Below the pieces are notes generated by a model, which made no database searches, was not told where the DNA came from, and was given only the letters and a program-made list of their open reading frames with translations. A program made the translations under genes and the position numbers. DNA of 64,000 nt, taken from NCBI GenBank assembly GCA_002633005.1, contig NMRA01000684.1, forward strand, positions 85,050-149,049. Direction: 5' to 3'. The DNA is from Phoronis australis. Its lineage: Eukaryota; Animalia; Phoronida. Positions 3,001-64,000 of the stretch are shown here, in pieces (the first letter of the stretch is position 1; each line of letters opens with the position of its first letter).

Positions 3001-3199
3001 CTCATACTCCAACTTTGAACAATGTCGGCAAAACACAAACAGAAGTAACGATAATGAACCAATATTCTCGTTGTGACCTTGAAAATAATATCAAGGCCAT
3101 CAAATTCGACCGGCGGGTCTCGATGCCTTTGGTGCAAAATATGAAAAAAATACCCAAAAAACAAACGCTCTGCTTGAGCTAACGTGCTACACAAGGTAT

Positions 3200-25782: not shown

Positions 25783-26117
25783 TTACTTGAACTCCCAGTT
25801 GTTTCCTACGCCTATGTGTACAACACTGAGGCACATGCGGGTTATTACCTGTGTCCATGACAACCCGAGCTCAAGATTTGAATACAGAGACCCGTATTGG
25901 GTATGCATTCGAGTCAAACAATCTCTCAGAATTTTCAGCAACTCATGTCTGTGAAGCCATGTGCTGTCGACACTTAGACTGCTTTCCAACTCTTCGATCA
26001 AGTTTCGTCTGTGATCAAGAGGGAATATGAAGACAATGGTTTTGTACATTCGCAGCAATGCTGTGCCCATAACTAGCACGCTAAGACATCTCTTCACTTC
26101 AATCTCCGCTCTCAAAC
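25783..26117 (-). CDS. PARP4: PARP4-like terminal coding exon, MVP-interaction domain (...QYGSLYSNLELGLSWTQVITRM...stop)
   Basis: ctag|GT TTG...TAA at 25783-25785; matches the PARP4 C-terminal QYP.I..RLELG..W motif. Candidate minus-strand AATAAA signals near 25553 and 25449. Confidence 0.88.
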
Positions 26118-29100
26118 CTAGAATTGGAAGAAATTGATGGACTATTTATTACAAAATGATAAACATCTTTTCTATACACAGGTAAATACACCATAATTCA
26201 CTATATAGTCAGGCAAGTCTAATGAAACATTCAGCAACAACTATTTTACAGTGCAAAATTATTGATCAGATAATACTAATCAAAAGGAACATGTCTTAAA
26301 GTGTACCATTGCTTTGAGGTCCAGGATAAACCAATAACTTAACAAGAATTCTGCGCCCAAGGCACCACCTGGGCCAGTAAACTTGCATTAGAAGTTCCGC
26401 ATTCATATCACATGTCTGGGTTTTATGATCCACGCATGATTTATCCACCATTCTAGGCCAAGAGTTCTCATCTCAAATGTAAAAATATTCCCATTTTGAA
26501 GGCAGGGGGAATTGTTTTGAACTCAAGGCAATACTCAACCTCTAAAGAGATGCTCAAACATGGAGTGAATGATCACAGTACATTACACAAATCAACTGGA
26601 TACACAGAATGTAATCTGTATATGGATGATAATCTACAAGTGAGATGAACGACCCTTACCAAGTGACTTGACACCAGCAGAGTTGAGAATCTCACACAGA
26701 GTTAGCCAGGTGTTGCCAACAGTTTGAAAATCTGCATCACTGTTACATTTGTTCTAAAATATAGAACAGCTCAGTAACTTTTATAAAGCACGACAATTAA
26801 ATAACGAAGTCGTGTCATAAGTCATTCTTAGTATGCTTGAAGATGATAGTTGGAATGACCAATATTGGCTGAATTCAAATGCTGCAGCAATATATCCAAA
26901 TAAAGACTGTCAGAAGAAAACAGGATTTTCCATGTTTACATATACACACATTCCAAGTAATTTCTATAATCAAAATGAATTCAATTTAAACATCTTTTAT
27001 GTACCGGTGCCTTGGATGATCTATTTGAGAATGAAAACCATCTTCTATCACGAGATGGAAATGTTTGAGACAAACATATTGTGTGGTGGAATGACAGGGT
27101 TTACAACTTTCATTTTAGTTGACGAGAGTGAAGAAAATATCCCTTTGTTAAATAAAACCCCTTTTCAATGGTTTATTATTAATAATTAAATGCAACATTA
27201 ACAATTAACATTTATGTTTACAAACTGATGTATCGATGATTCACTCAAAATGTCACATGACACTGAGGGTGAGGCTACCCATTTCTAACCATCAGATTTG
27301 CATGATTCAGTGCCAGAAGATGCTCCTAAACCTACCAGTGCTTTTGCCATAGCAAGTACATCGTCACTGAGTTCCAGGCGATTGCAGTACTTGTCTAGAA
27401 TGATGGTTTCTTCCAGAGACCATCTTTGCCACTTTTCATACAAAGATGAACCTGTTCAAATTGCATCAAGCCATAAGAAATGTCAATGAAGAGAGCTCCT
27501 GGAAGTCATGCACCAGTTTTAGGCAGAGTTGTGTTGTTGATTATATGTTGAAATATTTCAATATTTTAAAGGGTTAAACAAACTCACAAATGACTCAGAC
27601 AGCTTATCATTCTGAAATTTGTCTGGACTTACTCCTCTTGCACAGTGCATGACATGCTATTATATATCACAACTGTAGGGGCTTGTCTCGAGCAATAACG
27701 ACTCAAACTGTCAGTTGGAAGCCTAGGAATCACCTATAACTTGATAAGGAACATTTTGAGACAAATTTCATAGTGGTAAGATGTTTGTGTCAAAAGTCAA
27801 TTTTTGTGACTAAAAAGGGCTCAAATTTAAGCAATTAGGTTTTAAAAGTTTCCATGACACTTTCTTCTAGTTTTCAGGGTTTTGTTTCATGCTAATATGT
27901 AAATCTAGCACTATAACAAAACTAAATATCTGCCGTAAGCACTATTTCAACCCATTTCCGTAACAAATACCTCACACAATATTAACAAAAACTAAATACC
28001 AGTATCTGCCGTAAGCACTATTTCAACCCATTTCCGTAACAAATACCTCACACACTGATCAGCTGACAGACAACTGGGTCATGACCAGGAAACATACACT
28101 GAATGATCCCATCAAAGTCCTGCATATGTATTCATAAATTTCAAATCAACAATAAAAATTACCCAGCCATTGATCCTTGATACCTGGTTGTCACATTCAG
28201 TTCATGTGACGTCACACCATCTGATGGTACATGACATAGTATTTTTTAGTTTTTCGGTGTTGTTACTGGGTTCAGTGGTGCAGCCACAACATTCTTTCAG
28301 TGCAGCCATTGTGTTGGGGCATCTAGCCATGATAGTACTGTTTCTACCGTCTGAATAGTGGTTTACGCGCATGTGCAATTTGGGATTTTTTTGGAAAGTT
28401 TTTCCTGTACTGTGGTCAAGAGAAAGCTTTTCAGAGATGAGACAAAAATTACAACTTTGGATTTTTCAAGTCAATTTCATTTTTTCATTCCATTGTGTAT
28501 GAAAAATCTAAGGGCACATTGTCAACCTTACATCAAAATACAAAATATCAAATCAAAAATTCAAAATTAAGTACTCGTGGCCATGGCGGGACATGTTTAA
28601 AAGGTATGACAAGAATAAATATAACTTGAAAATAAATAAATACAAAGTACTGGTCAAATATTACTTTAAACAATATCAAGAGTGACGCAAAGCATTGATA
28701 TGCACCCACCTGGTGCAACACAAATGGCAAAGATATAAGGGCACTGACTCATTTGTTTAAATATTTCCATGCACAAGAGTGGAGGGCACTTATTGAACTT
28801 AAAACTGAGACTACAGGAGGCAGTGTTAGTTATCTGAAAATTGGCAAACGTAATCCTGATAGATATTGGGATTGAAGCCTGAAATTATCACTAGGGGGAA
28901 CTGCAGCAGTCAGATACATTCAGTAAATGATTCCAGTCATGTTAAGCTTAAGGGAAACTCGTTTGTCATGAGGATTGCTCAATGGATTTTGCAGGTAGAG
29001 AGGTGGACACCAAAAGAGAATAATTACCATGACAGTATTAACTAATAACACTGCTACTAGGGGGCACAACTTTTAAGCTGGCAATTACCAAAATGCAGAA

Positions 29101-32100
29101 GCCTAGGGTAGATGTCTCCTTGTTAAAATCTTTTCTGCCAAATTTCATGACAATCTTTGATCAAAGTTGGGGGACATTGAGACAATCACAAAAACGTTGC
29201 CATTGCAGACACGTTTCCATCAATATAATAAACACATTCATCAAATTTCATAAGAATTCTTCAAACCATTTACCAGGTAAAACGGCAAATGTTCAAAATA
29301 GACACCAAACTATTAAAACTACAACTAAGTCAACTAAGTGGTGCACAACAAGCCAAAGTCCTTCTTGACAGAAACACATTTGTCAAATTTTATGAGGTTC
29401 CATCCAGGATCTTGCTAGGTACAAAGCAAGCACAAAAAGGTATAATTGCCACAAGAGGGCAGGGCAGTAACTGGATACGTCTGAAAGTCAAAATAGGCCA
29501 TGTCCTCACTAACACGGATACACACACGCACGCATGCACAAAGTTCCATGACAATCCTTCAAGAACTTGGTTGCTACAGAGGTTTGCGCAAAATAAATAA
29601 AATTACCAATAGGGGGCACAGCAGTAATGCAATACATCCAAAAACAAAGTAATATATGAATCATACTCTCCTCACTAGAATCATATCTGTAAGTTTCAAG
29701 ATAGTCCTTTCACCAAACTTTAATTTGATAAATATTGAGGCAGGTGCAAAAAAGTGCCAGTAGGGGGCAGGGTGGTAATCAGATGTGTCCAAAAATCAAT
29801 GTGCCTCATGCTCTCACAAATGGCAACAAATTCCACGAATTTCATCAAGATCCATCAAAATGTTTGCTATATACAGATACAGACACAAAAAAACTACAAT
29901 TGCCCCTAGAAGGCACACATCAACAAAATGCAGCCACATGAAAATTGTCCTGTGACAATGGCTCTACGATACAAACATTTTTCTAATCCATCAAGGGACT
30001 TGGCAGATATAATATATAAACAAATACTGCAAAAAATCAAATTGTCACAAAGTAGCTGAATTTGTGTGAAAGCCGTCCTCATCCGTCAAGAAGTGCATAT
30101 GAACATAGCTGCCAAATTTTAAGATTAGTTCGTGTTCGAGGTTTAGAAGATACAGGCTGCAGATCCAATATGTACTAAATCTGATGCAGGATGGACAAAT
30201 GGATACAAGATGGACAGATGCCAGACAAAAATAATGGCAACATGTAAACAACATAATAACCAATACGAACATATTCAAAGGATTAGAATGATATCACAAA
30301 TCTAAGTCTGGTCAGCCTGCCATCAATTGGCCACATCACATGACCTAAAGAATATAAGTCTGAAAGGATTTCTGTCTGTCTGCACATTGCTTCCAATTTG
30401 TTCCTTGCTTTAAAGTAAACATTACAACATACCATCTCTTTTGGTGCCAACAGGAACTAGATTCTTGTACTGTGACGTCTGCTTCTCAAAGAATGGGAAA
30501 CATGGCCGTAAAAGGTGCCCAAAACGCTGACTGTCGAGCCACGCGCAGGTCAGAGTGTCTGACTTAACAGTGACAGTGGCGGAACGGGGCTGGTGGTAGA
30601 GAAGTGAGACCTCACCTGAAAACAGCAGAGCTCACATCATGTACACACTGGTCGGCATACAGATCAACATTGCTCAGGAACAGGCAGACAATATGCAAAG
30701 CACAATCCTACAAAGTAATGCTAAATGCCATATATGCAGGTCATCTCAAAAATGAGCACAAAGTTGTAATACAGTACCAGGAAATGGTTTTACTAACCAG
30801 ATCCTTTGCTTTAACTGCAACTCGAATCATAAATGAACCAACTGCATGACACGCTTAAAGTAAAATTAGAAATTTTGTAGCCGGTCTCAAATTGAGCAGC
30901 GTGAGTCCGAATTGAGTTTGAGTTCAGAAATTATACACTGGCCCCAGGTGTTGCCCTGGTTCCAATAATTCCAAACTTGCTTTGCAACGAATTAAGACAA
31001 GTGCCACACAGCTGACTCTATTTGCAGAGAACAGTTCAGCTCTAGCACAGAACACAAACAGTATAGCCTAGCTCCAGTGCAGATGTTGAGGAGTCAGACA
31101 AGCTGGTGTGCCAAGGCAATGAAGAACTGACACAACATGTACTGTTTTGTGATTCCGGTGTTCGGTCTGAATTAGCATATAGCCGACCTAGAAGGAGAAG
31201 TGTTACATCGCTGCTGCATTCATCCGTTGACCCCCAACACGTTCGATGGGATAGCAATTAAAATGAACAAGTAGGGGGGCTGACCAGTGAAGACAGTATC
31301 TTACGCGATTGATTAACTCTACTGCCAGTGGTATTTATGGTTGGAGGGCCAGCTCTATTCAAAAGTTGCTCCCAAGAATGTGAGATGCCATTCCCCTGGA
31401 CTGTTAAAATCAAGAAATTTCCAATATCAGGATCTGACCTAGAATCACGTTTGATTAATAATTAAAACTTGACAAACAAGTCTATTGTGTTGGTACACAG
31501 TGCTGTGGCAGTAAGTAGGTCAGAGCGGTCACACAAAGGAATCAGCAATAGATAGTTAAGCCTAATTTCTCTGAAAGTCGACCGTTTTTCTCTGTTTGAA
31601 GTTTTTTGGTGATAGTATTTCATAAAAAAACAATATTCTCCACAACATTTGTTGACTGTCATTTGGAAATAGTATTTTTTAAATATTGGTGAGCGGCAGG
31701 CGTGCTGTGTACAACATAATTGCTGGATTACATGAGCTTATCAGTTGAATGGAGACAATGAGCGAGCAGGACTATGTTAACATTGGTTTGTGAAACTGAT
31801 AATGCCACAGCTGCATCCCAAGTTCCCGATCAGCGAAATCGAGACTCACCCCACAGCATGGGAGCATAACGAAATGGTATCTAGCCTGAATGGGCTGTGC
31901 TGTTAAAAATAAAAGATAAGTTATAAATCGTTTGAGCACAAATCAAGAACAATTCTGAATTCTAGGTCAAATGCTGATCATGTTTAGATTCTGAATCACC
32001 AAAATCACCCATCGACAACTTACAGCTGAAGTTAAGAGACTCTAGTATTATTCTTACTATCCAAACTCTTTTAACGGTTTCAGTTACTGTTGACTCTTTG

Positions 32101-35100
32101 AGGCCTGTTAGATAACTGGCCTGCATATTGTTATACCAAACAAAAGACTGTGCCCTCAACAGTTAACAAAGGAGCCAGATGTCATCAGATGTTCACAACC
32201 AGGGAAAGTCTGGTACAGTTATTGTCAGGGTATCGCCTCAAGTTAATGTCTGCAAAGTACAGACAGGCTGTAAGAGTGTCATGTATTCAGTCTGAAACAC
32301 ATGACGGACCTAGTACAGTCTGGTGAAACAGGCACCTATAGTTTTATGACATAAGGAGATGTCATAAAGGATTACAGGGGTGGCCAAGCAGCCCAAGAGC
32401 TGGACTGATTTCAATGGGCTATTGTGTTCGCATTAGCACAATCTAACTGTCTGATGACCATCATCCCATAGTCAATTTTTACCTGAACTGGGCACCTCAT
32501 GAATACATTCTCCATGTTTTGTAAACAGGAATCAACTTTTAACATAAAAAGTAATTTGTAGTTGTTCTGGACCTGTTCTAATGGTGGCATTTTGGTAATG
32601 TTAGAAGGAAGCATGTTTGCTCTTTCAGCATTAGATCCACAAAAAACTGTCCTTTACTTGCTTCTTGTATTGTTGACAGGAACGTACACTAAATTTCATT
32701 CCTGCCTTTCTCACTATGGCCCATTATTGTCAACTTCCTCAATCCATGCACTTCGCATAGAAAGAAAACTTGATAAAGTCACCATATGATTAGCAATATT
32801 TGCTTCACAGTTAGGATGAAATTAAGCCTCCAACATCAACTACCCGATAACTACTTAAATTTTGATACTGAGTGCATCACACCATCTTACTGACCAAAGT
32901 AGTCATTCGCTTTCAAACAACCAACGTCAGTGGGCTGGCAGTCATCTTGGCTTTGCTGAGAAACTACGGCCTCCCCCTGAATGACAGAAATCGAGCAAGA
33001 TTACAAAAGTGAATGGAAAAGTCTGGAAACATTCATTTGCACGGGATTGAGCACATTTTTCTTTATTGTCGCGGACAGATCTTAATCATTCTTTACTGAC
33101 AGCACATGCTGAGTAATAAAGTTCGCAAGTATTTACTCACAGAGGCGCATGGCCAAAACCTTCAAAGTTCACTGCACAACATACACTCGACTAATGGATA
33201 AGATTTGTACGTGACCGAAAAAGTTGTCCTCGTGGTTTGCAATAGCAAAATGAAGTGTGCACGCAGCAAGACTTAACTAGACAGTGAACATGCAGCCATC
33301 AGCATTTTTGTTGGTTATCTAGCAATGCTTAGCAGAGTTGAAGACTTTTGAGAAAATCTACTTCGCACATCAAAATTATCATTTAAACGCAGCGGAATTA
33401 CAAATTTTAAAGACACTCAGATACAGTGAATTTAAGTTGACTACTGCTAGGACTATAAAATTGGAACACACTAATGCAATTCAGAAATAGAAGCCCATAC
33501 CCATGAAATGTGCAAGGAACAGGTGAATAAATCATTCTTCAAAGCTGATTTTTTGAAAGAAAGTATTAAGTCAAATGTTTTTAGCTAACTGCAATCATGA
33601 TTAAAGGAGAATACCACCCAATTTAATTAGTCTTTTTTACCGTCTTAATCAGTCTATATCCACATCACCTCGTATATGGTCGATCTCATCTCGCCGAGAG
33701 GTGTCGCGTTAACCTGTGAGGAAGGTGAGAAACAACTCAGCGACGTCAGTCGTTCTTCTGCAGAGTGAGTGTCGCTATGGTGTGGTGTATTGTTCCCGGC
33801 TTGTGCGAACTATGAAGCTATGAGGAAAGCAGGTATATCGTTTTTTCGATTTCCTTGAGAGCACAGAATGCTTTGGAAGTGGTTTGCCGTAGTAGAGAAT
33901 GAAAAGTACGCTGTAATACCAATTAAGTATGAGGCCGTGAAACTTCTCATGCCTGTCTGTGGCTGGCATTTCGTCTCCAGCAATTTCACTGACGATCGAA
34001 TGCCGGCATACCAAACAGCTCATGCCAGGGCAGAAAAAGAGACTGAGGATGAAGTCAGATGTCATGCCTAGTGTGTTTGCGTACGATAGGCAGGAGACAA
34101 ACCAACATGGATAGGTTTTTGCTCAGTTTTTGATCATGGAGAATTGTAGCTGGCCATGAAAACATAAGCAATTACAATTAACCCAAGGCATGAGAACATA
34201 ACGTTTTATATAGCCTGTTTGATGACTTACTCATTCGTCATGCTTCTGTTTGGACCTCTGGGTGTAGGATGTTTTCGCCAGTTCTTTTTCCCAGTCCCAA
34301 AAATGTCATATGCAGACTTCTGTTTAGATGCAGTGCAAAATCAGGATGGTCCGTGAGACACATCTACGCTGCTCCAAGAAGGCGTTTCACTTGCGGAATT
34401 TCGTGGCAGCAAACACAAGCGTCAGTTGTTTCCATTATCGTGCAGTTAGCACACTGACACCATGACAGATAATTCAAACGGTTTTCGGAACTATGTTCCG
34501 TTGTCTGTGCACGTTCACGGCGCCTCTCTTGTATTTCGTGATCAGTGAATTCCAGTTCGAACTGATAGCTTGTAAACCTACCAATCAACCTGTGAAGTCT
34601 TCGTCGGATGAGCACTCGTCTAAGTCGGGATTGTGAGTTGCCACAGTTAACGTTTATTATTGTGTGCCATTTCAAAATGAATTATTCTCACCCTAAGTAG
34701 AATATATATTAAAACAACAAGAATTGATCAACTGAATTTTTCGGATATAATAACGTCCTTCGTCAACAGAAACAGAAAACTATACGACAATTGACATTTA
34801 AGATATGGCGAAATGAATATGATACCCTAACCAATGCTTATATAAAACTGAAACAAAGATGCAATAAACTAATTGACCGCGCAACTTCATACCGTGAATA
34901 ATACGCTTACAAGGAAGTCACGCATTTCGAAAGATATGCGGGAATTTTCACCAGACAAGCGGCTTGTACCAGGATCAAAGAGAGCGTGGCGTCGGAATCG
35001 GGTACAATTGTGATGACCGTAATGCCTGATGTGAGCAAGAACCAATTAAATGAAATTATCCGACCATAAACTGTATTAGACATCTCTGACTGTACATAAT

Positions 35101-38100
35101 GGCGAATTTTCAAAATGCATTAACCATTTATTTTTGTATTCAGCTGGAAAAAAACAACCAATTACTGTTTTCAATTTTTAAAAATCGAATCTAAAAACTA
35201 CTACCATTAGGTACAATTGAAGATAAACTACCGCGCGTATTGATACACTCGGTGGATATTCAAACGCTGATCAGAGTTGACAATATCACATGGATTCATT
35301 TTTTAACATTCTTTCAAGCTCTAACCAGATTTTTGACCAGGAAACAGTTGTGCCCACTTTTCATTTTTTATTACTGACAAAGAGCTAGTCTAAGAATAGT
35401 TATATAGTCGGTGCCATCGAAATTGTCCAGAGATTCCAGATCCTCAGTTTGGTTATCACCATATTTGCACTTTTGTATATATTTTATGATTTGAGTTCTA
35501 ATAAAGATTAAACTTTAATGACACGTGAAATGTTTAGTGTAGGCCTACCTCTAATGTGGAAAGGTCAGGGATGGGCTCACAATGAACTTAACTAGTAATT
35601 AAGTTTAGCTGGCGATCAAACTTTACCACTATCGTTCCTTTGGGAAGTGGCTCTTTGTAAAGATAAACACAAGTTAACCTTTTTAGTCATTTTGCAATAT
35701 TTATAATGTACCAAGTTAAAACTACTCTCCAGAGGAAACCAACTTGGCGGTACTAACAACAACCATTGTTGAGACACTAATGCTAGCAATTACCACTTCA
35801 TTAGCTCAGATCTACTTCAATACAAAGGTCGTGCTGAATACTAGCCATGTAAAAGCTGTCTGGGGCTTAGGGAATCAAAGTGGTCACCAGTGTAAGCGAG
35901 AAATTCTTCACATGTTGGCGGTGTGAGCACATGCTAATGCAGTGTATGCTGACAGAAAGCTGTTTTTGAAACAATATCTCGATTGTATATCCTATGGTCA
36001 GATGTTAGGGGAATCTTAATTTAGATATTCATATACATATTTATTCAAATCATTGTTACTGTGCAACTTTTGCACTGACGGCTTTGCTGTGGAAGGGTAA
36101 CCTGACTTCGCGGCCCCCGACGAGCTAGTAAGTAGATATGCAGTTTTGCGTCTAATTCACCAAAATAATCACATGCACGTTATTTCTTTGGCTCACTAGT
36201 ATAGTCTTTTCGTGACGGGAAGTTTAGTTTCTAACTCTGCCTCGTTTGTGTTCGTGATGTCTTCAGGCCAGCCGTGACGGGCCTGATCGGGTTCCAAGCC
36301 ACTGGTCAGGATAACAAGCGTTTTAAAATTTGTGTGTTTAGAACTGAAAAAATCGCAAGTCTAAAATTACAACACACAGCTATGTTCTCCTGTCTGTATT
36401 TCACGGACGAATAATTCGAATTTATCACCAAACAGGGCCCAAAACTCCCGCGACCGACCTTGGTAAATTGGCCTACCGAACTTTGTAGACTACGGTACGT
36501 TCCAAAACCTAATCCGTAACAGTGAAATAAAACAACACATTTGTTCAATAACTCGATGTATTTGTAAGGGTTTTACATCGAATTTTGTTGATTTATTGGT
36601 GTAAAATGATGAATTGAACCGATAAGCTGACACCAGTAAGTGTGTTGTGAACTGCTGAACAGACTGCATTTGAACCTCTGACGTCATTGGTTAATTTCAA
36701 CACCTCCGTCTGCCGTCATGTTCAGGTAAAAGAACCGTACTTGCTGTTATCGAGTGGAACTACTCGATCTAAATTGATACAAAATAGTTTGTTTTCTGGG
36801 TAGCATTCTCCTTTAAAAACCACACATTCCTGGAAACCATTTTGACAAATTTCAAAGAACAATCTTGCTGTGATAACTGAAGGACATCACCACAGTAAGT
36901 GACCTGGCAGTTAATATGAACCTACCTCAATGACCACATAGAACCTACTCCCAGGCTCTTCTTGGTTCACAATCACATCCCCGCAGCTAAATGTTGCCAA
37001 CGTCAACGTAGACACAAGCAGTTGTCTGGCAATGTCACTCAGAGATTCTACAACAACACAAAACCAAGCATTCCGTGTAAGGCACTGGTTTTTGTACAAG
37101 TTAATTCACAGTGTTTAAACACGAAATCGTACAACGTAAATTGAGCCTATCAATCTGGACTTGAAAAATTTCCTCACCAAAATTCAGTTGAAACTTAGAT
37201 ATGATCCGAGACTGAACCACCACTTCCTGAAATACCACAACACCCTCTCTGAGTGTCCAGTATTACCCACAATGCTATGAGTTCATTAAGGTACTTAGCC
37301 TACAACTGTACACTGCTTCTGTGTCGAAATGCAGGCAACAAAAAAGCTCAGTGACATACACTATAATGTTGCTACCTCTGCAACAGATAAAATGTTGTAA
37401 AACGAAAATCTGGAAATTGGCAGTCACTGGTGGTAAAATGGTCAGCTCAAGATTTTCTATCATATACTATCATTTTTTTTGCACACACTTCGTGGAAATG
37501 TAGTCTGGTTCATTGGTAACAAAAATTTTCATATCAATGTTGTCGGGATTAGAGACCTAATGGTAAAGCTTCACTTATTTAGCACACAATATGGCTGAAA
37601 TTCTGTTTTGTCAATTTTCTACACAAAAATAAAGATTAAGAAAATTTTAATCTAGTAGATGGCATGAAATTTTTTTGGTAAATTTTCCAATTATGTAAAT
37701 GTGTTACATGTTCATGCATGAGATAAAAAAAACTGCATAATAAAACAGACATGTATGCACAAAAGATAAAACAAACTCGCAATCCAAAAGACAGTGGACT
37801 CAACAGTCCAGCGATGTAGCGTGCAAAAATGGCATTTACAATCATATGTGCCTAACACAAAGGTCCAAATTTGAAGAAATAATAAATACTTTCATTTACA
37901 AAAACATCAAATTCGCATTGTGCCACTGATCAAAGAAGCACAATCTAAACTAAACAACACACAAAACTCATTGAAAATAAAGATCATGACAAAATCCTTT
38001 TTTAATTAACAATGATTACTTAAGCACTGCATGTTGTTGACGCAGCTGATCAAGCCTTGGTTCACACATTCTCTTTTCGGCATCTGAAAAATAAAATTGC

Positions 38101-41100
38101 TTGATGAATATTGAGAAACGCAGTATTACATAAATATCGACCAGTCCTGAGGATGTTATCAAGTCTTAGGGATACAGGGACGGCAACATCACTCTCCCGA
38201 GGTTCACATGACCCAATAGGCTTTCGGGCTCCGTCTATATTATGTTTTATTACAACATGGACTGCCAACACCACATATTTTCAATGGACGAAATCTGTGG
38301 TCTTACGCATAAGCCGTGACGTCATTATTCATTAGCGACACCTGGCAGACATAGCACGTATTACTGCCAGCAAGTACGTCATCTGCCAATCATGGTCATT
38401 TCATCGAGATTTGGATCGGCGATTTCGCCAGATTCACTACTCCAGAAATAACTACCAGGCCTACTCAAAAACCAATCTTGCCCTTCAACAGCAATTTACA
38501 TGACATTTCATCTTAAGCTCGAACGCTGATGGAAAACCTTGAACAATGTTTCACTGCTGAAATTATTTTTTTGCACTAGACAGTAAAATAGAAGAATTTC
38601 TTGTCACAATACACTAACTGGAAGCTGAGAGTGCTATGTTTAGAGGGTGGCACCTCCTTTAGGATATTTTGCTGAAAATGTTGGAGTTGCGAATCTGTTG
38701 TCTATAACCTATGATTACGAAATAATCCACTGCTTCTTTCCTCGGATTTTTTCGTCTCTTGAGAAAGTCAGCTTTCGTAAAGAATGACTCAACAGCCTTT
38801 GGAAGTCTTATGCATTTAGTCTTATTTTCATAATCAGTTGTTCAATCAAACTGAAGTGGAACTTGCACGCTAATTCCTTATCTCTGTGATTGCTTACTCT
38901 AATCACTTAGAAACACAACACACAGCGACGATGTGAATTAAATGAAGTAGAAAATTGCCAAATGTCTTTCAGAAGAAGTTTTGAGGTGAAAATGATCCAC
39001 CGCAAATCACTCAACCGTATCCAGTACGTATCGTGACGTGGCGTACAAGAATAACATTGCATGATGCGGCCTATATGAGCCCCAATGGTACGTCATTGGT
39101 GCAAAGGTCACCTATTTGCAGAATTTTTTATTTTCACATTGACAAGCTGTCAATGAATACAAGAGCGCACTTTGTTTAGCGTAGATGATGTTCAAATAGC
39201 AGTGTTGTAATTAAAATCCTGTTATACATTTAGAGCATGTATTTATTATTCTTTAAATAACATACCTCCGTGTAATACCACATGCAATAATCCAGCAGAT
39301 AGTGAAGAAAATCACCCTCAATGACCCACAGCTCAGTGTCAGTCAAGGTCAAAAAGGTGGGCTCACATGAGCAAGGAAGAGAGAATGGCCATTCTCGCTC
39401 GATCCCGAAACTGTCACCAGCAGTCAACACAACGGCGGGACTCGTATCAGCCTGCACCTGTAAACAAAAGCCCGTACCTTAATACATGTAATACAAAACA
39501 GTTCACACTCTGTACAAGCTGAAGAGACATCCCTTTGACTCACTTTGATTATGCTGTAACAGAGAGTGCAATTCTTTGCAAGTGAACATTTTCTTTCATT
39601 GATAATACTTCTGAGTAACACTTTGCCTAACATTAAGCTGTGCAACGCATCAAATGGGTTACTAACTAAAATATAAACCTGGGCTTCATAGATCATAAAT
39701 TGACGTTTTGTAAGGTGTCACTTTTTGCCAAAAAATTGCTTCAAGCAGGTAAAATTGCAATAATTTGAAAACACTTGTTATGATCTGTGCAATAAGAACA
39801 AGAATCATGCGAGAAAATGTAAGAAGAACCGAACTAACAAGTGTTTGACTCTCTGCCCCCCTACACCACAAACCTGAGCATGCTAGTGATTTTCAGAATC
39901 TTAAATTAATGAAATTGGTCCACTCTAACAATGTCCAACATAAAGGCCCATGGGCATTTCATTGGATGGGCTTATCTACGGAAATATCGGTAGTCAAATA
40001 ATTTTTAGTCTGTGGTAGTCGTCACCTCAACAGCTCCCTTGCCAATTATGTAGTGCTTTGACAGACAAACCACCTTGTATCCAGCTTTCTTATAGACTGG
40101 CCTCAGGTGATCAATCAGCAGGCTGAAAAATAGAATAAAATAATAAGACATAAGCGATTTCAGCAATAACAAACAGGGCTTGGCTATCCAAAGCCAATAG
40201 GGGTAGTAAAACAATTATCATAAACCCTTTTTTAAGTTGTCTTTCCTTACACAGGCCAACTGGGACAGTTGTATGACTAAGAGCAGTGTTCGCACAGAAC
40301 AACTTTCAATGATCTTGCATGTCAATTGCCTTGTGAACAGCATTCATTTGGTTTCCGCCATTTTCAAAATTGTTTTGATTTTTTTTCCATCAGTCTGAAA
40401 CTTGACAAGATTTTACAAGTTAGTTTAAATAAACTTTGTATTTTTTCAACCCACACACCTTTTTAATGGACAAAACTGATAAAAGGTAAACAGTCTTATA
40501 ACCACCACATTTCTTCGGACATGGATTAAATTTTCAGTTATTATTTTTAAAGGATATAAGGACATGCAGCTTTGAGAATTTTACTGTAACCGGATCAAAG
40601 ATCATGATTTAATTGATGTGTCAAATACAAAAAAGATTGATTTAACTTCGAATTTTAACCACTTTATTCATCAAACACAGCAACTTTGAAGAAAAAAATT
40701 GATTCGATTTTTCTAAAAGATCATTCACCCAGACATTATCTTGGATAATTTTAATGGTAATTGTTATACCCAGGTAATAATTAAATTTTGTATTCGTATC
40801 ACGTGCCAGTTTTAGAGCATGATGTTCACCACCAGTTTATTCTGAACTCTCCATTCTAAGTCTACCCTCAGTCACCTTTTCACTAGACTGGCAAGCCAAG
40901 CAAACAGTCCGCATTGTTGCCCATGGAAATCAGATGACCCTTGGAACCCTAGTCGTTAAAATTATTTTACCAACAGATAACTGTGAAGCAGTACCATATT
41001 CGCCCTAATAAGCGCCCACGCCCCTATAAGCCCCCTCCCGCACATTTTCACACTTTGCTAAAATAAGCGCCCAGCCAATCAACGTGTATGTATCTGCAAA

Positions 41101-44100
41101 ATGGCTCACCTATAGTTCTAAAATTAACAGTAATGTCTCCAATTTATCAATAATATCCGACAGTCCTGAAAAATCATTGAGCGCGGAATTTCTAGACCAT
41201 GAGCCTCGCCACTATGTTGGTATTTAGCCATGACTGTACACTTCAAACTTCTGCAGTGCGAGGAACGTGTCCCACCATGGTTAGGCCTTTCAGAACAGAT
41301 GCAGCGTACTTGTCAACGGGATTGTATTAATATCTTTCCCGTACAGATCTTCTCCCTCAACAGGAATCCAATTTCTTTGTACATGTAAAAACTGTGAATC
41401 TAAGACTATAAAAAAAACTTGACCAGTGTTAAAAGCACAGGGCCAAGAAGCACGCGCAACATATATGTAGCTACTCTGGCAAATGAACTCTGAAAAGAAG
41501 CACGTGCTCGCTCACTCGGCACACACCTCCAGACTAACTTCAAAACAAACGTCACGTGACAACAACATTACGTGTTTGTACAGATTTTTCTCGTGCTGCA
41601 GGGAGCGATCTAGCGCAAGGCCATGGTATTCAAGTCAGCGGTGTGGCACGTTATTTCTTGGTTGTTCACCTCAATTCAAAAAAAGAAACTCCATTCAAGA
41701 TGAGAAAAAGCGATGCGGGTTTTGTTTTGTTTTTCTTTACTCACTGCTTGGCAAAACCATGGTGTTTCAAACCTTGCTTGCCTGTGCCAACATACCTTTA
41801 TGTAACTATGCAGCTACTCAACAGAAGAAGACGTAGCTTGGCTGAAACTGATGCAAGCGAGCGATTTTTTTTTCTCTTAGCTAGCGAGAGTGACTCTCAA
41901 AATGAATCGGTGTACAGGCCAGATTCATCTTATGTTAATTGGCCTATCATGTAGTCTGAGAGGTAGCAGAACTGATGTAGCATTGGAGTATAGACGAAAT
42001 TTGCCTGTGGCTACACATGCGAAGCAAAAACAGGCCGTACTTTTGGTTCAACTTACCTCATTGTTGACTCGTTGAGGAAAGAAAACCTAGGATTACTGAG
42101 GATCATCCGGTGAAGACTGGTCCTAGTCTCATAGTCTTTGTGGACAATCTGAAAACATACCGTCCCTTAAATTACAACGTCCTGGCTGAGGAAAATCGGT
42201 GGTAATTACAAGTGACTTCTCCGTTTAATCATCGGCAGTTATTAGATGTCAAAGTGTTAAGTAGCAGGGCAAGGCCTACTTACAGTATCAACCATATATT
42301 ATAGACAACAGATTTGCAACTCCGACATTTTCTTCCGTACTATCCTAGAGATGGCACCACTCTCCTAAATTATCTGGTTCATTTTCTGGTTAGTGTATTG
42401 TGATGGGAAATTTTCGCATCTATTTTACTGTCCAGTGCAACGAAAACGAAATAATAATTTCGGCATTGAGACGCTGTTCAAAATCTTAAAATAGTATAAC
42501 TCTTGGTACCGTGAGTACTTTTAGCAATGCTACTACCACCCGATCATACAACAGCCGACCAAGATTAGCAGACCATGTACTTGCCAGACACAACACCAGA
42601 TAATTAGGCCACGTGTCGCTAATGAATAATGACGTAACGTTGTATGGAAAAGCACAGATTTCAGATTTCGTCCATTGAAAGTATACAGAGTTGGCGGTAC
42701 CAACATATTGTACAAGAGTCATGTTAAGGGGTGAAAACTATCAGGTTAAGATTAATCGACAAGTATGTATATTCAGCCAAACACCTACAAACTGAATAAA
42801 TTTTAACGTACTATGAATATTCTGAAAATAGAAAGTCTGTGGAATTTGATTTTTAATGTCATATTACATCCACAGTATATGGGTCAAATGACCATGCGCT
42901 TTTAGAAAAAATCATTAAAAAGGAACAAGGAATATTCACAGCAAACAGCAGCATCCTGAACAACACGGCAAAATAAGATTTGAACATTTGAGATGAAATC
43001 TCAAAAATGCTGCAATTTACTCTAATTACATCATATTGCAGCTTTTGGGCTTTTTCATAAAAACAAAACCACGTTACTAACATTTGTAATCGCCACCATG
43101 CAAAAGTGAAACATCAAATAACAAAAAACAATTCCTAAAAGGTTTTGGCAAACACTGTATAAAGCACAGCATGTATCCATTTCACCTGAATCCGATCCGC
43201 TATTTCTGATATACGATGTTCTGAACCAAATTTGGACATTTTTTCTAAAGTCCTGCATAATCTTAAATGTTCTGCGAGCAATCACACGAAATTAGTACAC
43301 TGTCTGGCAAAAGTCTAGCAAAATGGAAAGGAAGGAAGTGTTGAATTATGGCAGCCTTGACAGGTTATAACACCTGAAATGCAATTCTCTTCATGGCATA
43401 AGTAAAAATTTCCCAAAGCAATTGACCTATTGCCAGGACTTTGAGTGACGGCTTAGGTGACCAATTAGAATGCCGCCTTCTTGACACACCTTCATTTCCA
43501 AGCTGCCATTTTACCCGACAAACAACACGACGCTGGGCAAAACATTATTGTTTGTCGACATTTTGCAAGGGGGCGGAGCTTGCAATAGATCAATTGTCTC
43601 GTGAAAGCTTACCTTTACCGATGGTGGGGCCAATGGTGCATTGCAGGGAGGCTTGCTAAATGCTCTCATCTTTGATGATATTTCTCCTGACAACAACACA
43701 ATAAAATTCAAAATGGTGCAAAATATTTTCCAGTATTTGCAGAAAGGTAACATGCAGATTCTTTATTTTGTGCACAAAAACAATAGGTACATCACAAACC
43801 AATGGCAAACGGTTCCTATTATTGCTTGCGACCAGTATGGGAATGACCTGACAACACTATAAGGCAGTGGGAAGCAGAAAAACATTTTCAATGGAATGAT
43901 AGTCAATGGTAAATTCACTCTGAGATGGCATTGCCAAGGCACCGTTAGTCTTTATTATCACGAAGATGAATAAGAGCAACGTAGAGTATTGATATGCGCC
44001 ACCGTGTGCAAATTTTTTTTTAAAAAGGCACAGCAATGCTACATTTTTTAAAACATTTCCGTCTCACTAAAACAATAAGTGAGCAACAATGAGTGTACTA

Positions 44101-47100
44101 AAACTGAGGCTACAAGGGACAGTGCTAGTCACCTGAAAATTGGCAAAATGTAATTTTGGTAGATATTGGGACTGACGCAACTTATTCTTGCCTTAAAGAA
44201 CTTTATCTTAAAAAAAAGCTATGCACACGGTGATATTTAAAATTAATGGATTTCACCAAACTCGACAATTACCTTAATTTTTAAGGTAACTGTCCTTGAG
44301 GAAAATTAACAATTGCCTTACCACCTTTGTTTTCTTCTGCTGATGGCAAAGTTTCACTAACTGCACCTTTAATGCTGTGTTCGAGTTTCTTTGAGCTTGC
44401 CCTTGGTTTCCCTCTTTTGCTTGTGGACAAATACGACGACCATTGTCTCCCCTCACTGGACGACAGAGTAGACACTTCTACATATTTTTCTTGAGCTCCC
44501 GTGGACTGCCCTAGATGGCTGATCTCTGTTCTTTCCTTAATTTCAAGAGGTTCTGACAACGAATATGGTTCTATTTCTTCATCTGCAACTAAGAGCGGTT
44601 CAGAGGCGGTGTAAGAAGCGACCATTGCTCGTCGCTGTGGTAGTGGTGCTATTGGCTTCGACATGCTATATGTTTGTGATGGTAACCGTGGCACCGCTAG
44701 TGGTGGTGGTGATGATGTTGGAGCGATACGTTTCGCTAATTTTGACACTGGCTGCTTATGTAACAGGATTGGACGTGAAAGTTTATCTCTATGAATACTA
44801 CTTGCTTTTGGTGGTTTTGGAGCAGCTGCACACAGACCATAGAGAAGTTGTGGAGCAGCTCTATCCTCAGCACCAATTTGATGGGATACAGCTGGTGATG
44901 GCAAAGGTCCACCACCATGCACACTTCCACGTGGTGGTGGTGGCGGCGGCGGTGGTGGGCCAGGTCTATGCATGGCACCAAATTGTTGAGCTCCAGTTGG
45001 TGGTTGCGAGGGTTTACGTTCTAGACGTACACTTCTACATGGTGGTGGTAATGGTGATGCTAGTGGTGGTGGTGGTGGTGCTGATGACGGTAGTGGTGCA
45101 TGATCACGACTATGCATGGCATGGGGTTTCTTTTGATGAACCACTTCTTGCGGTGGTGGAGGTCCAGTGACAGCAGTGCGCTTCTTGCGAACATGCGGCC
45201 GTAGTGGCAGTTGAGAAGATCTGTCTGTACCCCACACTATCTCATCATGAACTGGTAACCGCGGTGGAGCAGAATTATCTGTATCCCCCATCGACGACGA
45301 CATCACACCTACTGCTGGGGAAGGTCCGCCACCTCGCATACTTCCAGGTAATGGTAGTGGTCGTAACGGTGAAGAAACTTCAAGCACGGACGGAGGTGAT
45401 TCAAAATCCTCAGTCCCATAGGTATTATCTTCATCACTGCTAAAGTCATCACCCTCATAAGTGTCATCATAGACCTCACAGCCCATATCGTCACCAAGTG
45501 ACTCATACAGGCTCTCATCATTGTAACCAAGTTCGGCGATTTCTATTGGGAGAGTATCTGCAATAGTGATGACTAACATTTAACAAAAGTTATCACAGTT
45601 AACTTTTAATCAAAAATAACAAACACACAGCCAAATTACTGAATGAAGAGAACTTACTAGGCCTAAACTCTCCTAAACAAGTGCACCTCGTATCGCACTT
45701 AATGTAAACATCGAAAGTTGAGGTTTTTGTTTGTCCATGAAAGACATTATTGAAGCAGATTTATCCATATCCCCCACCGACATTCCACGAGGTATACCTA
45801 GTGCTGAGGAAGGACCGCCACCTCGCATACTTCCAGGTAATGGTAGTGGTCGTAACAGGGAAGAAACTTCATGCACAGACGGAGATGATACAAAGCCCTC
45901 AATCCCATAGGTATTATCGTCATCCATGCTTAAGTATTCACACACATAGGTATCACCATAACCCACAGAAATGTTGGCATAGACCTGACGGCACATATCC
46001 TCACCAAACAGACCAAACTCAAAGCTCTCTTCATAAGACCCATAGCTCTCCTCATCAGACCCAAGGCTCTCCTCATCAGACCCAAGGCTCTCCTCGTCAG
46101 ACCCAAGGCTCTCCTCACCCCACTTAATCGAAATTGCTTTAGGGAGAGTATCTGCAATGGTGATGCTAAAATTTAACAAAAGTTACAACACAGTTAACTT
46201 TTAATCACAAATAACGAGCACACAGCCAAATTACTGTTTGAAGAAAACTTACTAGGCCCAAACTCTCCCAAACACTGAGGTGCACCTTGTATCACACTCA
46301 ATGTAAATGTCAAAAGTTTGAGGTTTTTAGTCCATGAAGGATTGAAACATATCATGTTATCATGACTCTTCTGTGAACAACAGCAGCTCAGAGCAAAGAT
46401 ATTTACCAGAAGGGTAAAAATAGAAAGGGTGATAGACTGGTGACGCACAAGATTCAGTTATTTCCCCAGCCTAAAGAGCGCAGCACTAGTAACACAAAGA
46501 AAACTGGAGAGTGCAATCCCCTCTTTAAAAACCTCTGTCACAGCTTTTGTCTTTCACTGCGTAACATCAATCAAAGAAATATACACATCACGTGGTGGAT
46601 GTCAAAAACTACTATTGTCACCAGAAGGGATTCATCACTTTCTATCATGATACAATTTTCATTTCTCTTCTCGCAAAAATTGGTTTAAATAACGCACACG
46701 ACATTTGCCTTGGTATAATGCATGAATTTACAATACGTATCAGAGCATTTAATTTCTATCAAATAAAATTTGAGAAAGGAGGGGAGAGGGTGAGGGGGAG
46801 GAGGTGAGGGGGAGGATGGTACATGCCAAAAATTACAGTAAAATGACCACTAATAAAGTGGCACAAAACAGGTTGAATCCAAAAACAAAAAGGTGGTGTT
46901 GTCTCCCTAATACGTACCTATTTGTCAAATTCCAAGAAACAACATTAAGGAACTTCGAAGATACGGAGGCAAAAGTAATTGCCACTAGGGGACACACCGG
47001 GAGTCAGATGAGCATGAAACTTTGATTGTGCTGACCTATTCATGATACGGACATTTTCTATAAAATTTCATGAGCATCCATCCATTGGTTTTGAAGATAC

Positions 47101-50100
47101 AGCAGCGGGCATTGGACAGACGCCGTAGGGACACATTGGGATGACAGCAATACCCCCACAAATATTATGTAGGTTCATACAAATATTTTTACCGTTTTCC
47201 AGGTATTCCACTTGTGACAGGAACCAAGTGTAAAGAGTTCTCTAGGTACGTAATAGTATTTATTTTCCGCGAGTTCCTTCCCCACAAAAATATTATAATA
47301 GTCAGATTATTTTCATTGGCCATACATTATTTCCGATATCTAAACGAGAGTGTCAATTGGAGTACCCGAGGGCCACTAGCCTGAAAGTGTTTACTACATC
47401 AAAATTCCACCAGGGGTCTAGGAAAGAGAAATAATGAACAGGAAATAAATAAATCGATAACTCTTACAGAAAACAAGAACGAAAATGGTCAAATGGTCCA
47501 AATGACTGTAGTTGACATTGTCCTCGTGCAGCGTCACAATTCAGACAATTTTTTGCAGCTGTATGCAACAGATTAATGCAACTAAAGGTTTGCAACTCTT
47601 TTCAACCGAACCACAATTTCATGCCAAACTAGATAAAAACACAAAAGATTTAAGTTATCACATGATTATCATGATTATCCATGGTTTCACACAAATACTG
47701 CTTAGGGAATAAAATAGAGCAGTTCAGGTATCCATGGCGTGAACTCATGAAATCACTAGAAGTTTTCTACTCATCTCATGAATTTCCCAATAAGTTTGCA
47801 TTTCCCGGAAACTATTTTAATTGTATAATTGTTTTCAAGTTTCTCACATTTGACAACTTGATCTAGAACAATGTCAGGTGTGAAATCTTCATTCTCCTGG
47901 TGAGATTTTGTGGATTTAATATAGCTTGCTTGAATTAAGAAGCACCTCCTAACATGATTATTACCGAATTTATCAATCCGTCCATGCACCATCTCCAAAG
48001 AAATGTCAGTAGCCACCTGAAATAATAATTATATAACACTAATATCAAGCAATCACTGTAATAATAAATCAATAATCGTCCAAATATAATCGAACAGAGT
48101 TTTTTTCTAAATCTACACTGCACCGAGGACCAACTCCAGCAAAATGATGTAATGTTATCTATCACAATTAGGTAACTTCGTAAGGGACATAAAGCGGACG
48201 AAGCATTGAGCACAGCAAGGGAGTACCAGATAATGACATAAAGCAAATTATGTCGTCATGGACTGTACAGAGTTGCCAGCATAGCTAGTCAGGATGGTCG
48301 AAAATCCTGAGCTAATGCCAAGTCTTTGTTTAGAAGAAGATGACAGAGAAGCAGACGGCAAAGAGTTACCTAACGAATCAAAATGTTTTCACTGTCTCTA
48401 TTACTTTGTCTAGCTTATAATCCTTGAAGTCCCGAAGACTGCATCATGGTTTGCATTAGGCAGCAAATCAAAACCCTCAGACATGGGATGCACTTGTACT
48501 GCGCGGACATTCACTTGTATTCAGTGACTGGTGACCAATCTAAAGAGGGATCAGGGACCTCCATACCAAAAGTCAGAACATCTTACTGGTCAAATGGAAG
48601 AGAAAACTGTAAAATGGCCATTCACACAATCAAAAGATTTAGAACAAAAGACAATAAGCCCCTCGCTTTAATTTAACTAATTAAAATTTTCACCAAGGAT
48701 GAAGTGAACAAACACCGCATGTAAATTTAGTCATAATGTACAAAAGATTTTTGGAAGCTGCATGGCTCTGCTATTTCTTTTTTCCCTGAGAGAAGATAGC
48801 AGAGTGAAGCACTAAGCATCTGTCAAAAAACCGTTGTAAGACTTACCATCATGTCTACAGGTGTCTCTGTGTCCCAGCCGATATAATCTAGAATGTCACT
48901 TCGTTCCCTGTCAATCAACTCTTGCATGCTTGGCCCTTGGTCAAAAGTTTCGTGCTTAAACATCAAAAAAATTAATACAAAACTGAAACTGGATGGGGCG
49001 TGGTCATAATGATTGTACACCGCTTCTCATTAAATGCAATGTGCACCTGTCAAACGTGCAAGTTTCAGGTACAGTCAGGTAAAGACACCTGACCATTGTA
49101 ACTGTTTTCAAAATTGGAAAAGTGTCATAACAGCCCATCCCATAATTTTCAAAATTCAGTGTAACTCACTGGAAAAAAAAGTTATTGAAATAATATTAGA
49201 CAAGTGCAACCACAAATTAGTGGTACCCTGTGATGTCATCCCATTTGTAAGTTTGATGACTTTCAGCACAAAGGGCAAGTTAGCCATAGTCTGGCATCAG
49301 CCACGACATAGCATCTCCACCATGCATCTTATTAACACAGTCACCGTTTTAAAAGTTTAGTGAACCTCTTTTTCGGTTTTAAAAACAATAAATTCCGCAC
49401 TTTATCATAGTGCAAAGAGTGATTTTTTTGCATGCCTCATTAATAGTTATGTCTCAAATGCGTTGTTTTTAAAACCTAAAAAGGGGTTCAATTTTATAAT
49501 GACAGCTGCGCGAATAAGGCAAACAGGGAGCGTTTTTAGATTCACGGGTTCTTACAGGAGCAGGATCAAGAACAGAAAAAATGAATCAAAGTAACGAATT
49601 GAGAAGTAAAAAAACTTCCCATACCAATGAAGCCACTAAAACAATGGATCGTCTTCAATTTAATTGGTCTGTGATGTTAGCAGCAGCTTGTGGGATATTA
49701 AAGTAATGAAGTGGGGTGCCCTTTTGGCCTCATCACTGGTATTATGCGATCACTGTTTATAGAGGACTCAAAAGGCCGGGTCTTTGCCTTTACAGTACCT
49801 GGTCTCGTTTCTCCACGGCTATGAAACTAGTAAACTGTGTAACAATGGAATACTTCTTGCTGATGTTCACAATGGACGACTGTCGCTTCATTTTAACTGC
49901 CTGAAAATTAGAAATACATCATTTGTAGCAGGCTAAATATGAAATACAATGCAACCCTACCGTCGAGCATAACATACCATGTCATAGCTCACGATCAGAA
50001 AATTCAACCCATTTAAATAAAATTTGTGTTAGAAACAGCGTGCCATAAAATTCAACTTTTGCAGCAGAAGCATCGGCAAATTTAAGTCACCAACAGTCAA

Positions 50101-63904: not shown

Positions 63905-64000
63905 ATCCACCACACTAACCCATCACACACTAACCCACCACACCAACCCAACACACCAACTCACCACTGACATCAGTCCACCACATCATCCCACAACCCA
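63905..64000. repeat. C/A-rich low-complexity tract (CACCA/ACCC units), running off the window edge
   Basis: Seen directly. Confidence 0.7.

Follow-up and report, generated by a model that had tools for sequence, protein, structure and literature searches.

Human PARP4 consists of BRCT, WGR, HD and ART domains followed by an ITIHL region, a linker and a C-terminal MVP-interaction domain, the MVPID (PMC10450202, PMC12280208), and the function of the vault is still an open question (PMC12280208; 10.64898/2026.05.01.722283). In this work we describe a PARP4-like gene of Phoronis australis in which eight exons derived from a type I regulatory (RI) subunit of cAMP-dependent protein kinase (PKA), hereafter the cassette, are spliced between a proline-rich (Pro-rich) linker exon and the exons of the MVPID. 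The gene lies in a stretch of 64,000 nucleotides of contig NMRA01000684.1 (positions 85,050 to 149,049), here called the window, which has 39% GC, and it runs on the minus strand from beyond base 64000 to a stop codon at 25784.

In mammals, exon 30 of PARP4 has been subject to recurrent positive selection and was proposed to be an interface with pathogens (PMC4038475), and the mammalian counterpart of the linker was also proposed as a cleavage site (PMC10450202). PARP4-like proteins carrying 14-3-3, actin or ubiquitin-related domains have been reported from amoebae, Capsaspora, a choanoflagellate, a lancelet and a sea urchin (Perina et al. 2014, PMC4245714); the words 'cNMP', 'cyclic' and 'decoy' do not occur in the text of that article. 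Appended domains on clade 5 PARPs are already known, and it is the cyclic nucleotide (cNMP) cassette that appears to be the new element.

An eight-exon PKA-RI cassette in a PARP4-like transcript

The cassette carries two cyclic-nucleotide-binding domains, CNB-A and CNB-B, and is composed of the following exons:

43686-43613, minus strand: cassette exon 1, 74 nt, remnant of the RI linker without the RRxA inhibitor site (RNA joints, alignment)
42148-42057, minus strand: cassette exon 2, 92 nt, start of CNB-A, same size as human PRKAR1A c.349-440 (RNA joints, alignment)
40122-40026, minus strand: cassette exon 3, 97 nt, beta strands of CNB-A, with a 4-residue deletion relative to RI (RNA joints)
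39457-39266, minus strand: cassette exon 4, 192 nt, degenerate phosphate-binding cassette of CNB-A, Arg209 changed to Cys, insertions (RNA joints)
38083-38020, minus strand: cassette exon 5, 64 nt, B/C helix (RNA joints, alignment)
37047-36926, minus strand: cassette exon 6, 122 nt, start of CNB-B, same size as c.770-891, positions Trp260 and Glu261 changed (RNA joints)
32976-32895, minus strand: cassette exon 7, 82 nt, CNB-B up to the phosphate-binding cassette, same size as c.892-973 (RNA joints)
30615-30433, minus strand: cassette exon 8, 183 nt, pocket of CNB-B, Glu324, Arg333 and Tyr371 retained, Ser at the Ala334 position (RNA joints)

The eight exons add up to 906 nt (302 codons), as the original prediction had it. 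Each is bounded by AG and GT, and together they form a single stop-free frame that is entered and left in phase 1. Stop-free joins of this kind were found in none of 20,000 random sets of same-sized pieces of the window. The motifs quoted in that prediction were also located, namely KDYET at 42139, GDSFG at 39418, QEEPGSRFY at 36964, DYF/GEVSLL divided between exons 7 and 8 (32904/30615) and QPRSATV at 30592.

The RNA evidence consists of reads mapped from three raw-read runs of one study (X2, X3 and X4), together with a contig set from a second study; a screen of RNA sets by shared words named none as containing the region (the share of X1 was 0.06). All nine joints from 44322 to 27451 are present in the reads. 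Summed over the three runs and counted at 98% likeness, there were 15 reads for 44322>43686, 12, 8, 5, 7, 9, 16 and 10 for the successive joints from exon 1 to exon 8, and 7 for 30433>27451. The first mate falls on the plus strand in all joint reads, which in most stranded libraries means RNA of the minus strand. Moreover, a contig of the fourth run, which belongs to the other study and carries other alleles, also contains the first two joints.

The nine joints and the alleles of the second study therefore allow a misassembly to be rejected, and the same joints reject a separate nested gene for the cassette. The fusion between a PARP4-like gene and PKA-RI CNB domains is real at the transcript level, from the Pro-rich exon to the MVPID exons. 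The two joints within the MVPID were covered by 14 and 22 reads at 90% likeness, and no joint skipping directly from 44322 to 27451 is among those listed, which reach down to 4-5 reads. Since the depths of the cassette joints resemble those of the MVPID joints and no skip is among the joints listed, inclusion of the cassette looks constitutive or nearly so.

The intron between cassette exons 6 and 7 contains a repeat-like element (34681-33778, minus strand) with a weak P2RX7_C match in Pfam (E 6e-4, below the cut-off). RNA was seen on both of its strands and the element is probably mobile.

Origin of the cassette

Type I R subunits align with the whole cassette across both CNB domains, at 32% identity over 277 aa and E 5e-41; Drosophila RI matches at E 8e-39, and exon 8 has RI-alpha as its best PDB match (E 1.5e-8; RII 5e-5). 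A quick tree of 37 rows, none of them labelled as RII, groups the cassette with the animal-type RIs (SH-aLRT 83) on a very long branch, its placement being flagged as unsure. The branch length is 3.65 against 0.1-0.25 for the RIs. Compared with four animal-type RIs, three of which are 75-82% identical to the fourth (sheep), the cassette is 30-33% identical in CNB-A and 35-41% in CNB-B; joined to a new scaffold, this copy of a conserved host protein has changed far more quickly than its source.

The homology of CNB-A rests on the alignments of the cassette with R subunits; a profile built on two CNB sequences did not recover this domain, since 158 of 500 shuffles reached an equally high score. 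Exons 2, 4 and 7, searched singly, gave no relevant PDB match, and a single-sequence fold of exon 4 was of low confidence (pLDDT 55) and uninformative in a fold search.

Human PRKAR1A has introns after c.348, 440, 502, 549, 708, 769, 891 and 973, as given by the names of intronic variants (PMC11240189). All seven internal junction phases of the cassette (0, 2, 0, 0, 1, 0, 1) agree with the human gene, three exons have the same sizes (92, 122 and 82 nt) and the human c.502 intron is missing from the cassette. The cassette starts in the RI linker, by means of a new phase-1 acceptor. Because the intron phases match those of PRKAR1A a retrocopy is ruled out and, judged by its gene structure, the cassette is a genomic (DNA-level) duplication of a PKA type I regulatory gene, introns included.

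State of the CNB domains

A CNB-A/CNB-B tandem able to sense cyclic nucleotides had been predicted. A tandem derived from PKA-RI does stand just before the MVPID, but only CNB-B keeps a canonical pocket. The roles of Arg209 and Arg333, Trp260 and Tyr371 in the cAMP pockets are known (PMC10959531). In the cassette pocket A is not retained: Arg209 is replaced by Cys and the capping Trp260 by Ile, and Glu200 is displaced by an insertion. The residues of inter-domain contact (Arg241, Glu261 and Asp267) are all replaced as well, and with both pocket A and these contacts lost a working two-site switch of the PKA type is therefore not present. The cassette contains neither the D/D domain nor the RRxA inhibitor site, and it has no RR pair.

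Pocket B retains Glu324, Arg333 and the capping Tyr371. The position that follows Arg333 is occupied by Ser in the cassette, by Ala in all six aligned R subunits and by Ser or Thr in Plasmodium PKG. This is presumably the position of the PKG Thr that determines cGMP binding (Ala334). Such a Thr in the pocket of PKG is a determinant of cGMP binding, and CNB-B of RI-alpha loses its selectivity on single substitutions (PMC3765617). CNB-B of the cassette would still bind a cyclic nucleotide, and this may include cGMP besides cAMP since Ser replaces Ala at the specificity position. What these residues suggest is one live pocket, possibly less selective, beside a dead partner.

The MVP-interaction domain

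The MVPID is encoded by three exons:

27451..27336, minus strand: MVPID exon 1 (RNA joints, profile)
26753..26660, minus strand: MVPID exon 2 (RNA, profile)
26117..25784, minus strand: MVPID exon 3 up to the stop codon, with Asn at the Arg1689 position (motif 25884-25864) (RNA, profile)

These last three exons (180 aa) matched a hidden Markov model of 42 PARP4 C-termini with 18.3 bits (E 2.7e-7), the best of 200 shuffles reaching 3.9; single MVPID exons had no Pfam or PDB match. In human PARP4, Arg1689 is situated in a conserved patch (PMC10450202) and contacts MVP (PMC12280208). Its equivalent was placed by counting 36 residues from the end of the mammalian orthologues, which gives the Arg before the LELG motif. 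It is Arg in all 37 motif-matched relatives (37 of 42, five being without the motif) and Asn in the window; the hydrozoan protein P0084 is also without the equivalent Arg.

The claim that the sensor is followed by an MVP-binding domain is borne out as to MVPID homology and adjacency in RNA. However, since the Arg that contacts MVP is Asn, docking to the vault is not assured. The PARP4 of the window may, from its sequence, have loosened from or left the vault, or it may be a paralogue.

The host gene and its linker

Upstream of the cassette the following features were recognised:

63286..48847, minus strand: VIT-vWA (ITIH-like) region, 14 exons, open model of 623 aa (Pfam and tblastn with relatives)
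46165..45798, minus strand: tandem duplicate of the 5' end of the Pro-rich exon, acidic (87% over 453 nt)
45572..44322, minus strand: Pro-rich linker exon, about 417 aa (RNA depth and joint 44322>43686; 5' acceptor, 45572 or 45557, inferred)

Single exons of the VIT-vWA region gave a VIT match of 1e-24 in Pfam, plus VWA matches, and the 30 invertebrate PARP4s with the best scores share 53-60% identity with the core; VIT and vWA are thus combined in an ITIH-like region that is closest to PARP4s. In a tree of 41 rows with no VWA5A outgroup the core falls among the invertebrate PARP4s, weakly beside the annelid Lamellibrachia (80/60). The exon at 63286 has a splice acceptor at its start and matches the stretch that separates the catalytic from the VIT domain. 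The BRCT-WGR-PARP N-terminus is expected beyond base 64000, the catalytic domain being outside the window. Upstream of 45640 the Pro-rich exon is probably joined to the VIT-vWA exons, as their order and strand suggest.

The Pro-rich exon is the positional counterpart of mammalian PARP4 exon 30. Two duplicated stretches (46318-45750 and 45719-45265, minus strand) cover the intron end and the start of this exon. The first copy, with acidic repeats and a P-stalk-like motif seen by eye, is possibly an extra linker exon. A candidate linker exon of 52 nt was also noticed at 48016-47965 (minus strand), whose phases would link 48847 to the Pro-rich region. An unrelated class C GPCR-like gene lies downstream, its first coding exon being at 14430-13972 on the minus strand (ANF_receptor, E 5e-7).

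Host-protein pieces in the linkers of relatives

A recognisable piece of a host protein was found in 23 of 34 invertebrate linkers and in none of 42 vertebrate linkers, so that lineage-specific integrations recur at one site of the scaffold. This census took linkers of at least 80 residues after the ITIH-like region, the 34 including proteins without a species label, and was tallied by hand. The 34 were covered by Pfam, PDB searches and motif counts, the 42 vertebrate ones by two motifs, precomputed Pfam lists and fresh Pfam scans of five of them. According to Pfam, N-terminal pieces of actin occur in linkers from a sponge, a hydrozoan, bivalves, a brittle star and an acorn worm; lancelets and the acorn worm have the C-terminal half of 14-3-3, and gastropods and bivalves have ubiquitin, with EF-hands, HSP70, synaptobrevin and Roc as single cases. 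The PDB searches added a SNAP-25 motif in a clam linker (E 2.7e-4) and a histone H3 tail in that of a periwinkle (E 2.3e-3). A tail motif that we take to be of the ribosomal P-stalk type was present in 7 of the 34 linkers and absent from 200 shuffled sets; the Pfam Ribosomal_60s matches of P0039 and P0055 back this label. The pieces look non-functional, among them being some 55-70 aa of actin, half of 14-3-3 and the substrate domain of HSP70. A WH2-like motif was seen by eye in a sponge linker. Piece-bearing linkers include P0003, P0004, P0006, P0008, P0009, P0022, P0031 and P0036, and further P0043, P0053, P0055, P0060, P0063, P0084 and P0086.

The original prediction knew of no description of this architecture, and no cNMP version was found in our searches. 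Nevertheless, extra linker domains are common in non-vertebrate PARP4s and partly published, which makes the cassette one case of a general pattern.

Searches for the fusion elsewhere

The last MVPID exon gave no matches among 100 candidates of 166-2000 aa, and none of the eight candidates found with exon 8 had the fusion. A search of exon 8 against 1.84 billion representatives returned 58 matches, none of which was similar to the VIT-vWA core or to the MVPID. In metagenome contigs exon 8 matched two loci, L001 and L002; the former encodes a protist-type PKG-like kinase with several CNB domains (465-3143), which served as reference. PF00027 was found in none of the 120 PARP4 relatives listed, out of 941 matches, a weak negative given that these proteins have at most 2000 aa and the fused protein is estimated at more than 2000 aa; among the 120, the only invertebrate relatives reaching the MVPID are P0055, P0084, P0091 and partly P0092.

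The literature searched, which left most subscription papers outside its coverage, contained no paper on a PARP4-cNMP fusion. No paper joining PARP4 with an ITIH4-type bait and no title on the PARP4 linker as a decoy or mimic was found there either.

Possible roles of the cassette

The reading that we favour, tentatively and as something close to an even call, is that the cassette is a lineage-specific, built-in bait or sensor for the interference of pathogens with cAMP/cGMP signalling. Bacterial and viral effectors commonly attack, or use as cofactors, many of the proteins whose pieces are found in linkers, and because of this the pieces can be thought of as decoys. A stretch of a PKA-RI gene with its introns has been duplicated into the final intron of the linker in a PARP4-like gene and has become part of the mRNA. 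According to this model, the linker gathers look-alikes of host proteins that pathogens target or need. The RI module has lost the parts that control the kinase and has kept pocket B. Binding of a ligand, for instance on a rise in cyclic nucleotide, binding of an effector or cleavage in the linker would alter the ITIH-like/PARP part or free it from its anchor. About a dozen residues separate the end of the CNB-B lid helix from the MVPID exons, and over this short distance a movement could therefore pass on directly. Although skipping would preserve the frame, the cassette stays open, spliced and with its B pocket despite fast divergence.

Several points weigh against the bait or sensor. The decoy role is argued from pattern and analogy, and a plain physiological sensor would account for the intact ligand pocket just as well. 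The retention of three pocket residues at about 38% background identity has a chance of about 1 in 20 by simple arithmetic, which is modest evidence of selection. No second species with the fusion was found in the searches above, and the linker of the window had no actin, 14-3-3 or ubiquitin piece in the motif counts. A good number of the relatives are incomplete or machine-made gene models, and inserts such as the calmodulin at the very end of P0009 or the Roc of P0042 may come from the merging of neighbours. Moreover, Perina et al. read the appendages as a link to signalling and the cytoskeleton, not as decoys (PMC4245714).

An ordinary control by second messengers would have CNB-B bind the cell's own cAMP or cGMP and its lid helix switch vault docking via the MVPID, or the PARP activity, with no special immune role. 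The retained Glu324, Arg333 and Tyr371 and the MVPID exons following directly in the RNA speak for such a switch, as does PKG, where a hydroxyl residue at this specificity position shifts binding towards cGMP (PMC3765617). We nevertheless consider it unlikely, if still to be taken seriously, as the MVPID is without the Arg1689 equivalent, the very fast divergence is unusual for a housekeeping switch, and the unrelated host fragments in the same linker of other lineages are left unexplained. The cassette might also be a tolerated passenger, a segmental duplication drifting in a phase-compatible intron of a floppy linker, whose frame is open only since the MVPID must be translated. Its symmetric 1-1 phase would allow this, pocket A, the inhibitor site and the inter-domain contacts are lost, there are several indels, the linker is prone to duplication (the 87% tandem duplicate at 46165-45798) and no orthologous fusion was found. 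On the other hand, about 13 kb with eight exons and nine junctions has persisted while more than one substitution per site accumulated, whereas in-frame loss would be easy, and pocket B is intact; allele differences in CNB-B are four synonymous to three non-synonymous, against one to eight in the Pro-rich and MVPID exons, a weak comparison with 17 exonic sites listed. In our judgement a passenger is unlikely too, to about the same degree as the ordinary control.

That the cassette binds the catalytic subunit of PKA and tethers it to PARP4 or the vault, as a scaffold or inhibitor, is suggested by its RI origin and by the inclusion of the region just upstream of CNB-A; but without the RRxA site and the D/D domain, with the Glu261 and Trp260 positions replaced and with insertions in the A pocket and the B/C helix, this seems very improbable indeed. 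There is finally the question of the gene itself. RNA read mapping reaches only 45640, the linker exons between 48847 and 45572 are unplaced and an ATG is found at 45579, so that a short transcript could start from the Pro-rich exon, apart from the VIT-vWA/PARP exons. Alternatively the gene could be one of VWA5A type without a PARP domain, since the window does not reach the catalytic domain and Arg1689 is absent from VWA5A too (PMC10450202). We regard either case as improbable: the exon order is collinear with PARP4, no other 3' end is in view for the VIT-vWA exons, and 0, 1 and 2 reads of X2, X3 and X4 run over the ends of the mapped stretch, while the core shares 53-60% identity with invertebrate PARP4s and the 63286 exon matches the catalytic-VIT intersegment.

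If the cassette is indeed a bait or sensor, a bolder proposal can be made, for which we have more sympathy than confidence and which we hold as doubtful: the PARP4 linker would be an integrated-decoy platform of animals, to which every non-vertebrate lineage attaches mimics of host proteins under attack by pathogens. With a working sensor of cyclic nucleotides borrowed from PKA, this vault PARP would guard the cAMP/cGMP pathway and vaults would be an immune compartment triggered by effectors.

Comparison with known systems

To our knowledge nothing is known to act upstream of PARP4 activation, and a PARP4 carrying a module that binds small molecules, by a chemistry that is well understood, would offer a direct biochemical handle on the function of vaults. 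The census of linkers suggests a unifying bait hypothesis, under which the positive selection on mammalian exon 30 would be explained as well. Even if the cassette has no more than a passenger-like role, it is an RNA-verified domain shuffle of eight exons with retained introns.

Like human PARP4, the gene of the window has a VIT-vWA ITIH-like region, a long Pro-rich linker exon and a C-terminal MVPID-like domain; unlike it, the gene has an insert of 302 residues from PKA-RI before the MVPID, and its MVPID is divergent, with Asn at the Arg1689 position. With the PARP4-like proteins of Perina et al. (PMC4245714) it has in common a core host-protein piece placed after the VIT-vWA of a clade 5 PARP, whereas the insert of the window is a whole two-domain module with introns, situated at the MVPID end of the linker. 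With PRKAR1A/B the cassette shares the CNB-A/CNB-B tandem, the intron phases and the ligand residues of CNB-B, and it differs from them in being about 32% identical, in having neither D/D domain nor inhibitor site, in its degenerate pocket A and in the Ser that stands for Ala.

Integrated decoys are found in plant NLRs, and linkers that act as protease baits in alpha-2-macroglobulin, ITIH4, NLRP1 and CARD8. The likeness of the Phoronis gene to these systems lies in the fast-evolving copy of a host target, or bait stretch, within a putative immune sensor. The scaffold is different, being here a predicted ITIH-like ADP-ribosyltransferase.

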